DNA from: Escherichia coli
GTDB taxonomy: Bacteria; Pseudomonadota; Gammaproteobacteria; Enterobacterales; Enterobacteriaceae
Assembly (NCBI RefSeq): GCF_003018255.1
Contig: NZ_CP027440.1
DNA length: 64,000 nucleotides
Reading direction: 5' to 3' (one strand)
Below the pieces are notes generated by a model. The model worked only from the letters and a program-made list of their open reading frames with translations, made no database searches and was not told the origin of the DNA. Position 1 is the first letter of the stretch, and the number at the start of each line of letters is the position of its first letter. Positions 63,037 to 64,000 of the stretch are shown piece after piece. The position numbers and the translations under genes were made by a program.

Positions 63037-63235
63037 GAATTATCCTATAAATCATTCTTTAGTGTTTAGTTGTTAATTATTTTTAATCTGTCTTGTCAGA
63101 AAGTGCGAAATCGATCTTGCATTTACATTTTGTTACGTAATATAAATTGAACTAAGAATTTGTATTAAAATATTTTAATTTTTGTTCATGACATCTGAAT
63201 GCATGAATAGTTCAGTTTAAATAAGGATTAAATCA

Positions 63236-64000
63236 TGAAAAAAATGACAGTGGCACTTTCTGCTGTAGCAGTTGCAGTGATGTTTGCTGCGGGGGCGCAG
63301 GCAGCAGAAGTTTATAATAAAGATGGTAATAAACTGGATCTTTACGGGCGTGCAACCGCTCTGCATTACTTCTCGGATGATAAAGGTAATGACGGAGATC
63401 AGACTTATGCTCGTCTCGGCTTTAAAGGCGAAACGCAGATTAATGATCAACTGACCGGATTTGGTCAGTGGGAATACCAGTTCTCTGGTAACAAAACGGA
63501 ATCTGAAGGTTCCGCGGGAAATAAAACCCGTCTGGCATTTGCAGGTCTGAGATTTGCTGATGTTGGTAGCATTGATTACGGACGTAACTACGGTATTGCT
63601 TACGATGTCGGATCATATACTGACGTACTGCCAGAGTTTGGTGGTGATGGCTGGACTCAGACCGATAACTTTATGACTGCCCGAACTTCCGGAGTTCTGA
63701 CTTACCGTAATACAGATTTCTTTGGGCTGGTTGATGGTCTGAATTTTGCGGCGCAGTATCAGGGCAAAAATGAGCGCGATGACCTCCAGAAGGCCAATGG
63801 TGATGGGTATGGTTTCTCAGCCAGCTATGAGTTTGATGGTTTTGGTTTTGTGGCTGCGTATACCAAGTCAGATCGTACCAATAAGCAGGTTCAGGGACTG
63901 AATGGTAGCAAAACTATTGAAATCAAAGATCCTTTAACTGGGGATGTGACTGAAAAAGAAGTGGTCGTTGATTCCGGCAGCGTTGCAAAAGGTAAACATG
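63236..64000 (+). CDS. OmpC/NmpC/Lc-family general porin (3' end beyond window)
   Basis: [38 protein letters not shown]...[24 protein letters not shown]...[23 protein letters not shown] classic porin signatures; AAGGA RBS; AT-rich upstream. Confidence 0.85.

Follow-up and report, generated by a model that had tools for sequence, protein, structure and literature searches.

A porin gene with an IpeX-like 3' untranslated region inserted between tail genes M and L of a lambdoid Escherichia coli prophage

The 64,000 nucleotides of Escherichia coli DNA analysed here (contig NZ_CP027440.1 of assembly GCF_003018255.1; the whole stretch is called the window in what follows) end within a porin gene that belongs to a lambdoid prophage adjoining ompW and that directly follows a gpM-like minor tail protein gene, where the tail gene L is expected. 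We found that this porin gene is part of a 1,572-bp cassette inserted exactly between M and L, and made up of an AT-rich control region with an OmpR-type box, an intact porin gene, a structured 3' untranslated region (3'UTR) of ~200 nt, and a strong terminator before L. The 3'UTR matches the loci of the prophage RNA IpeX and is complementary to the translation initiation regions of ompC and ompF. We consider it probable (about 70%) that the cassette is a lysogenic-conversion moron, that is, a self-contained module by which a lysogen would exchange its major porins for a phage-encoded one.

Results

The porin cassette interrupts an intact tail operon

Positions 62600-64000 of the window match the chromosome of E. 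coli RM9387, a strain from cow faeces, at 100% identity, and likewise other genomes of Shiga-toxin-producing or bovine strains. The RM9387 locus (L001; window coordinate = L001 + 42599) was used as the source for the part that lies beyond the window. The initial annotation, made from the window, had described a gpM-like gene, then an AT-rich spacer of ~200 bp, and then a porin gene with its own ribosome-binding site that leaves the window. This description stands: the spacer measures 198 bp and contains 23.7% GC versus 55-59% in the tail genes, a Shine-Dalgarno sequence precedes the ATG, and the open reading frame (ORF) is still open at position 64000 (Table 1).

Two explanations had been offered for a porin at this place, an inserted accessory gene or a truncated tail cluster, and the comparison with related prophages decides for the former. 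In the porin-less relative PPompW_132418 (L005), the stop codon of M overlaps the start codon of L (TGATG, in ..CTGATGCAG..), whereas in RM9387 L begins 1,572 bp after the TGA of M (window 63034-63036, the left edge of the insertion), and both flanks align to the porin-less junction. It follows that 1,572 bp with the porin gene have been inserted right at the M/L junction; in RM9387 they extend from L001 20438 to 22009, and L starts at L001 22010. The rival idea, that the tail cluster ends after M and that the porin is a neighbouring host gene, could draw on the absence of anything after the porin within the window itself. In the identical RM9387 sequence, the ORF is not disrupted downstream and encodes a complete protein of 387 amino acids ending in ...YQF, and it is followed by intact L, K (a C40 peptidase), I and J genes, a hok gene, and tail-fibre genes, up to a partial ompW duplicate that forms the right end of the prophage ~11 kb further on; the left end, with the integrase adjoining ompW, lies at window position 20321. 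All the tail genes that one would look for after position 64000 are thus present, the tail cluster is not truncated, and other loci show the same, so that truncation can practically be dismissed.

The base composition of the cassette is foreign to the tail operon, as its ORF contains 44.8% GC (38% at third codon positions) versus 55-59% (63-72%) in the tail genes; the lc porin gene of phage PA-2 contains 44.1%. Absent from the junction of related phages, endowed with its own terminator and deviant in composition, the cassette fits the definition of a moron. The distance from the porin stop to the L start is 210 nt, and a GG(C/T)GGA stretch precedes the ATG of L in all alleles. Since this stretch is present and the prophage encodes a Q antiterminator, tail synthesis should proceed despite the terminator and the separation of M from L. 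An insertion that carries a terminator is thus tolerated at the tightly coupled M/L junction of lambda-type tail operons. Further along the same operon, a gap of ~900 bp without annotation separates I from J in RM9387 (L001 24040-24950) versus ~240-340 bp in other porin-bearing prophages, and could hold a further insert or a pseudogene.

Table 1. Position of the cassette features in the window or, for the part beyond it, in the RM9387 locus L001
Feature	Position	Strand	Basis
gpM-like minor tail protein gene, 113 aa	window 62695-63036	+	ORF list; PHROG 14 'minor tail protein', E 2e-39; RefSeq 'phage tail protein'
5' non-coding flank of the cassette, 198 bp, 23.7% GC, presumed control region	window 63037-63234	+	base composition
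OmpR-type box TTTACATTTTGTTACGTAAT, putative OmpR binding site	window 63122-63141	+	17-nt match CTTGCATTTACATTTTG to K-12 ompC upstream region, same orientation
Candidate -35, TTGTTC	window 63182-63187	+	in conserved block TGTT(C/T)ATGACA
Candidate -10, GAATAG (weak)	window 63205-63210	+	17 nt after candidate -35; in conserved block TGAA(T/C)AGTTC
Shine-Dalgarno sequence AAGGA, 7 nt ahead of the ATG	window 63223-63227	+	direct reading; invariant in every allele aligned
Porin ORF, first 255 of 387 codons, open at window end	window 63235-64000	+	ORF; ATG at 63235
Signal peptide, 23 aa	window 63235-63303	+	first residue of the mature OmpC chains 3UPG and 9WCB aligned with residue 24
Extended, allele-variable surface loop (L5 by OmpC alignment), residues ~218-252	window 63886-63990	+	alignment A3
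Remainder of the porin ORF	L001 up to 21799	+	identical RM9387 sequence
IpeX-like 3'UTR, ~200 nt	L001 21800-21997	+	RM9387, between porin stop and terminator end
Intrinsic terminator GGGGCGCGGTTGCGCCCC then T6	L001 21974-21997	+	ends 12 nt ahead of the L ATG

The 3'UTR is conserved, structured, and complementary to ompC and ompF

The 3'UTR presents a fixed order of elements, with two hairpins right after the stop codon, a third hairpin, a U-rich single-stranded stretch that contains TTATTACCTT, and the terminator. The seed stretches of its core are TTATTACCTT, which is invariant in 12 distinct 3'UTRs, and TTAACTTTCTGTTAT; their counterpart in the ompC leader is ATAACAGAGGGTTAA. Between alleles, the 3'UTR is 74-92% identical and its central seed block 81-97%, versus 42-65% at four-fold degenerate sites; among the alleles with the most diverged four-fold sites (42-57% identical), the values are still 74-87% for the 3'UTR and 81-97% for the central block. 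The minimum free energy (MFE) of the 3'UTR has a z-score of -6.9 relative to shuffled sequences, and the two hairpins after the stop codon contain seven pairs with compensatory changes (0-4 in slid controls) and are paired in 99.4% of the alignment cells (35-47% when the partner is slid). Conservation above that of four-fold sites, the folding z-score and the compensatory pairs together argue that the 3'UTR is not filler; it has an RNA structure and is under purifying selection.

A covariance model (R1) built from the 3'UTRs of the M-L cassettes alone matches the IpeX loci of DLP12 and PA-2 over its full length (167 nt; 41.7 bits, E 6.8e-8 in the 78 kb searched). The next best match in these 78 kb is micF of K-12 (L006 2010-2174; 13.5 bits, E 0.22), which is not significant and is consistent with the seed similarity of the two RNAs, the 3'UTR core being identical at 21 of 25 positions to nt 10-34 of MicF, its ompF-binding part (5 of 2,000 shuffles score as high). 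The 3' region of lc in PA-2, which is the site of IpeX, is likewise arranged as three hairpins, then the seed, then a GGGGCG terminator, and the cassette has ~30 nt of extra spacer between seed and terminator when compared to the IpeX loci. We therefore conclude that the cassette 3'UTR is a relative of IpeX. Neither the cassette (at E values up to 5, MicF RF00033 included) nor the canonical IpeX locus has a match in Rfam, which holds no IpeX family, and a BLAST search of the flanks against those of ompC, nmpC and lc returned only a 17-mer located upstream of the gene, so that the kinship surfaced only through a duplex scan and the covariance model.

This duplex scan gives -30.5 kcal/mol for the 3'UTR core with the K-12 ompC initiation region, a value that exceeds all 17,834 background windows (mean -12.0, standard deviation 3.4) and that was never attained in 2,000 dinucleotide shuffles, whichever partner was shuffled. 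The duplex comprises a run of 15 bp (UUAACUUUCUGUUAU with AUAACAGAGGGUUAA) that spans the Shine-Dalgarno sequence, and 8-bp and 6-bp runs that reach the start codon. Pairing with ompF (-24.2 kcal/mol) lies in the top 0.25% of the background and is equalled by 14 of 2,000 shuffles, while the initiation regions of the cassette itself and of nmpC/lc give only -9.6 and -12.5 kcal/mol, respectively. The 3' region of lc in PA-2 behaves alike in the same scan, with -28.7 kcal/mol on ompC and -23.2 kcal/mol on ompF from CCUUCUGUUAUAUAUUACCCUUUAUU. Every allele of the cassette keeps -21 to -32 kcal/mol on both targets, and the allele of the window clearly prefers ompC and ompF within a panel of twelve start regions; under the same crude method, the controls behave as they should, MicF picking ompF and MicC picking ompC. 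The predicted main target, the initiation region of ompC, hardly varies: 5,358 of 5,426 E. coli genomes have it at 99% identity or more.

Until now, IpeX was a lone and poorly understood prophage RNA. It now has relatives in the tail-operon lineage described here and in one further place: another E. coli porin lineage (P0025, 70% identical; L047 3805-5104), located ~1 kb 3' of a gene for a CdiI-family immunity protein, carries an IpeX-like 3'UTR right after its stop codon (R1 89 bits, E 5e-19); a porin in another island (P0044) has none. Comparison of these naturally varying relatives could help to reveal the mode of action of this class of RNA.

The cassette encodes a distinct lineage of general porins

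The assignment of the gene to the OmpC/NmpC/Lc family in the initial annotation proved right. The protein scores 504.9 bits versus a curated cut-off of 484 with the NCBIfam model NF007841 'porin OmpC', remains below the cut-offs of the PhoE and OmpF equivalog models, and has OmpC, PhoE, OmpK36 and OmpF as its best matches among solved structures (E 1e-131 to 1e-118); PF00267 and PF13609 are precomputed on its homologues. It carries the sequence marks of a general porin, namely a signal peptide, a mature N-terminus AE(V/I)..., the loop-3 motif PEFGGD, and a C-terminal aromatic residue, and L132-D138 as well as the terminal Y385, Q386 and F387 are invariant in the porin alignment (A3).

This porin is not an orthologue of ompC. 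Its place is in a prophage, between M and L, and it is 64% identical in amino acids to K-12 OmpC, and ~67% identical in amino acids and ~72% in nucleotides to the Lc/NmpC ORF. A neighbour-joining tree groups the M-L porins in a single clade, sister to the group of Salmonella OmpD, Citrobacter porins, Lc and NmpC, with K-12 OmpC outside both, so that the alignment with NmpC, Lc and OmpD proposed earlier places the gene beside these porins rather than among them. The RefSeq name of the gene, 'porin OmpC', is correct only at the family level. Porins are the main entry route of small hydrophilic antibiotics and serve as receptors for many phages, colicins and toxins of contact-dependent inhibition (CDI), and with such a label, genome-based inference of porin content, phage host range and permeability misreads these strains.

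When compared to OmpC or Lc, the loop aligned to L5 is longer by ~30 residues, and the loop aligned to L4 is shorter than that of OmpC. Differences in length and sequence among cassette alleles are concentrated in the L5-aligned loop and the next one, and the barrel is conserved (A3). The AlphaFold2 model (mean pLDDT 72.7, pTM 0.70) is all-beta with ~16 long strands and a loop hairpin; loop 3 is of low confidence, and a helix and a beta-hairpin (225-231/238-244) are predicted with moderate confidence in the L5 extension. The porin gene is intact in all 32 loci that hold it whole, of 37 loci collected. Divergent alleles are 83-94% identical in amino acids versus only 42-65% at four-fold sites, which indicates purifying selection on a working protein.

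An OmpR-type box lies in a conserved AT-rich upstream region

The 5' flank keeps conserved blocks among alleles that otherwise differ by ~20% (alignment A2). It has nothing in common with the flanks of ompC, nmpC and lc in BLAST comparisons, except for the 17-nt exact match CTTGCATTTACATTTTG in the ompC upstream region (2 of 1000 shuffles score as high), which we take to be the OmpR site C1 (TTTACATTTTGAAACATCTA). The box that contains this match occurs once in the window, where 0.02 would be expected, and its best local match upstream of ompF is TTTACTTTTGGTTACATA, presumably the OmpR site F1. The box core TTTACAT and the AC downstream are identical in all four alleles of A2, including the one with the most divergent upstream region, and positions 8-13 (TTTGTT here) vary. 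The start of the box is located 60 nt ahead of a candidate -35 element, versus 62 nt from C1 to the -35 of ompC, and with the candidate -10 element the leader would measure only about 15-20 nt. The conserved blocks and the OmpR-type box suggest an activator-dependent promoter. The cassette thus likely has a promoter of its own, which may be under the control of OmpR. A separate promoter for the 3'UTR RNA (TTGCCA...TAACTT) was also considered and was dropped, as this segment is absent from SW-type alleles.

The cassette recurs in divergent prophages and keeps its position between M and L

A megablast search of 5,426 complete E. coli genomes (at least 80% coverage) found the cassette in 101 of them (~2%), many from Shiga-toxin-producing or bovine strains, with allele groups at about 100, 95, 93, 88 and 80% identity. 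In every case inspected, the layout is M-porin-L despite differences in the remainder of the phage: the prophage of strain 95-3322 has a lambda-type head and other prophages have HK97-type heads, and in one contig M is only 49% identical. The same layout is found in Citrobacter farmeri. A 22-base pattern from the 3'UTR retrieved 29 IMG/VR contigs, again with M-porin-L wherever the flanks are present; the same pattern, scanned exactly in one genome per species, had no match. Three of the 29, separate viral contigs of IMG genome 643348545 (L020, L021 and L022), each carry the cassette between M and L, which indicates that a single strain can hold three copies. The cassette is absent from 50,697 deposited phage genomes, whose porins (Lc, NmpC, 'OmpD') are at most 67.7% identical to that of the cassette and sit near Q and the lysis genes on the opposite strand.

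On two plasmid-like contigs (L010 and L011), in which Rop and IS66 genes occur, the entire cassette is found with decayed remnants of M and L at its sides, the latter with in-frame stops. The unit thus persists where the phage genes have been lost. As the copies are flanked by these remnants, plasmids were rejected as the source of the cassette. At its 3' end, the copy of L010 has lost the terminator, the homology with the phage cassettes breaking just 5' of it; IS66 genes follow immediately, and the rest of the L remnant resumes ~2.4 kb further on.

Discussion

A putative porin-swap module and its alternatives

We propose the following scenario for a lysogen. The cassette would be transcribed from its own promoter, probably activated by OmpR, and the porin would be exported and inserted in the outer membrane. 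Within the mRNA or after processing, the 3'UTR would pair with the ribosome-binding regions of ompC and ompF, and lower their synthesis. The major porins of the cell, which serve as receptors for phages, colicins and CDI toxins, would thereby give way to a phage-encoded porin with other surface loops, and permeability would be retained. If OmpR drives the cassette, it should be induced under the conditions of ompC and take the place of OmpC. During lytic growth, RNA polymerase modified by Q would pass the terminator, so that L, K, I and J would still be made. A precedent exists in PA-2 lysogens, where Lc appears and OmpC, the receptor of PA-2, goes down.

Use of the promoter, control by OmpR, repression of ompC and ompF, and a benefit to the lysogen are the steps that we infer. 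The benefit could consist in the exclusion of OmpC/OmpF-dependent phages, of colicins or of CDI, in immune evasion, or in an altered permeability. The earlier proposal that the porin could remodel outer-membrane permeability and the availability of phage receptors would agree with this, and is backed by the IpeX-related 3'UTR with its complementarity to the ompC and ompF initiation regions. A bolder version, which we put forward tentatively and would sooner doubt than defend as a whole, is that the M-L cassette represents a widespread and undescribed receptor-swap system. In it, a single OmpR-driven transcript would give both a replacement porin with fast-evolving loops and an antisense RNA of the IpeX class that shuts off OmpC and OmpF, rendering lysogens resistant to OmpC/OmpF-dependent phages, colicins and CDI at no cost in permeability. 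The seed alleles might be tuned to different targets (ompC for the RM9387 type; ompF and lamB for the SW type), and the system would be useful enough to persist on plasmid-like DNA.

Several points weigh against the porin swap. A strict sigma-70 scan of the sense strand of the cassette reported no promoter, as expected if the promoter depends on an activator, and the proposed -35 and -10 elements are weak; with 24% GC, the upstream region may moreover be silenced by H-NS. The R1 model was built from nine related sequences with a shortened calibration, and it aligns the seed regions of the IpeX loci out of register. The duplex energies come from a simple duplex fold that ignores the accessibility of the sites, and their background is ~180 kb of mostly phage DNA rather than all E. 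coli start regions. Some of the core is paired to the beginning of the 3'UTR in the MFE fold, as opposed to the centroid. The SW-type allele has nearly equal scores on lamB and ompA, which implies a weak specificity of this allele. Lastly, the receptor of the phage itself gives no clue: the C-terminal 300 residues of J are 98% identical to those of phage 1720a-02, versus ~50% for lambda (which uses LamB) and ~48% for 434 (OmpC), and allow no call. A long-tailed phage of enterohaemorrhagic E. coli does use OmpC (PMC12502783).

The 3' end might be passive, the cassette being a porin moron whose 3'UTR serves only as a stability or terminator element and whose complementarity is a relic of an inverted ompC-type leader. 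Indeed, the reverse complement of the core resembles a degenerate ompC leader (AATAAAGG..ATAACAGAaaGTTAA..CATG), and the regulation by IpeX is reported not to rest on complementarity alone, a point that also bears on the pairing step of our scenario. A decaying relic should, however, not exceed neutral conservation, and the seed block with its invariant TTATTACCTT is the most conserved part of the cassette, far above the four-fold sites; the pairing also avoids the start region of the cassette's own porin. We thus regard a passive 3' end as unlikely. Selection on the ORF likewise bears on the possibility that the gene is cryptic, like nmpC of K-12, with the AT-rich region silenced by H-NS and the porin made only after activating mutations or under particular stresses. 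The very low GC content upstream and the lack of a consensus sigma-70 promoter would fit such silencing, and nmpC is silent in K-12, there through IS5. Against it, all loci that span the entire ORF have it intact, the ORF evolves under purifying selection, and the cassette is retained next to decaying tail genes. For NmpC-type morons, expression in a lysogen is documented (10-fold above the local background in LF82; PMC9928086), which also counts against silencing. Altogether, a cryptic gene seems distinctly unlikely.

The retention of the cassette on plasmid-like contigs devoid of functional phage genes also counts against a role played mainly after induction, for instance a late removal of OmpC and OmpF from the infected cell, which would keep progeny from being lost on debris, or the exclusion of other phages during the latent period. 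Such a lytic function would fit the orientation of the cassette, which points along the late operon and which Q-modified polymerase would transcribe by reading through from pR', whereas Lc and NmpC point against that operon. Yet the cassette has a conserved control region and a terminator of its own, and J gave no indication of the receptor, so that we see a lytic role as improbable. The porin-swap module thus remains our preferred interpretation.

Relation to known phage porins, morons, and antisense RNAs

Phage-borne porins and IpeX are already known, and the cassette is not new in kind. Like Lc of PA-2 and NmpC of DLP12, it brings a general porin of ~44% GC on a lambdoid phage or prophage, and like them, it continues after the stop codon with three hairpins, a U-rich single strand complementary to the ompC and ompF starts, and a GGGGCG-type terminator. 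It differs from them in its location: Lc and NmpC are found between Q and the lysis genes, pointing against the late operon, whereas the cassette lies between M and L and points along it. Its porin forms a clade of its own, ~67% identical in amino acids, with the longer L5 loop described above, and the upstream regions are unrelated: CRP sites are annotated upstream of lc, versus an OmpR-type box here. With respect to databases and the searchable literature, the porin clade, the fixed and co-directional site in the tail operon, the control region, the long variable loop, and the kinship of the 3'UTR with IpeX appear to be new. In the literature searched, we found no relevant account of a porin between phage tail genes, nor of the RefSeq proteins of the cassette.

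The chromosomal ompC/micF pair offers another parallel, with the same porin family, the 17-nt match to an OmpR site at a similar spacing to the candidate -35, and the coupling of the making of one porin to an antisense RNA against another, including the 21 of 25 nt shared with the ompF-binding part of MicF. The antisense element of the cassette is however placed 3' in the same transcript instead of in a divergent gene, and its predicted main target is ompC itself. The cassette also lies away from the ompC locus, the MicF model of Rfam does not match it, and R1 reaches only 13.5 bits on micF. With the morons of lambda-type phages (lom, bor; Hendrix/Juhala), the cassette shares its own terminator, its deviant composition, and a position between genes that are adjacent in related phages. 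Its cargo is different, being a porin plus a presumed regulatory RNA, and it splits the overlapping M and L genes, with its terminator ending 12 nt before L. Small RNAs derived from 3'UTRs in enterobacteria, such as CpxQ, SroC and MicL, resemble it by a conserved 3'UTR that ends in the mRNA's own terminator and exposes a single-stranded seed; they differ in that processing and Hfq binding form no part of the evidence for the cassette 3'UTR. The svsR RNA of the NC-SV prophage, considered since E. coli from mice carry the cassette, turned out to be an unrelated RNA in cI.

Other features of the prophage

No stx gene is present in the prophage. Two tRNA genes (tRNA-Ile and tRNA-Arg) and a small 'TolA' ORF lie 3' of Q (window 37696-37856 and 38135-38563), and a 'TonB family' ORF follows the lysis genes (window 48093-48419). 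The portal ORF (window 53881-56466, 861 amino acids) contains, in its C-terminal part, 3.6 tandem copies of a 162-bp (54-amino-acid) repeat with 95% identity (window 55408-55997; DDVRPMLEQMVKEAVSHIPVPRDGRDYDP..ANIPQPADGKSLTP). The prophage also carries hokD (window 31309-31464) and a RelE/ParE toxin with a helix-turn-helix partner (window 31567-32249), and a second Hok/Gef gene is located just after J (L001 28835-28975).

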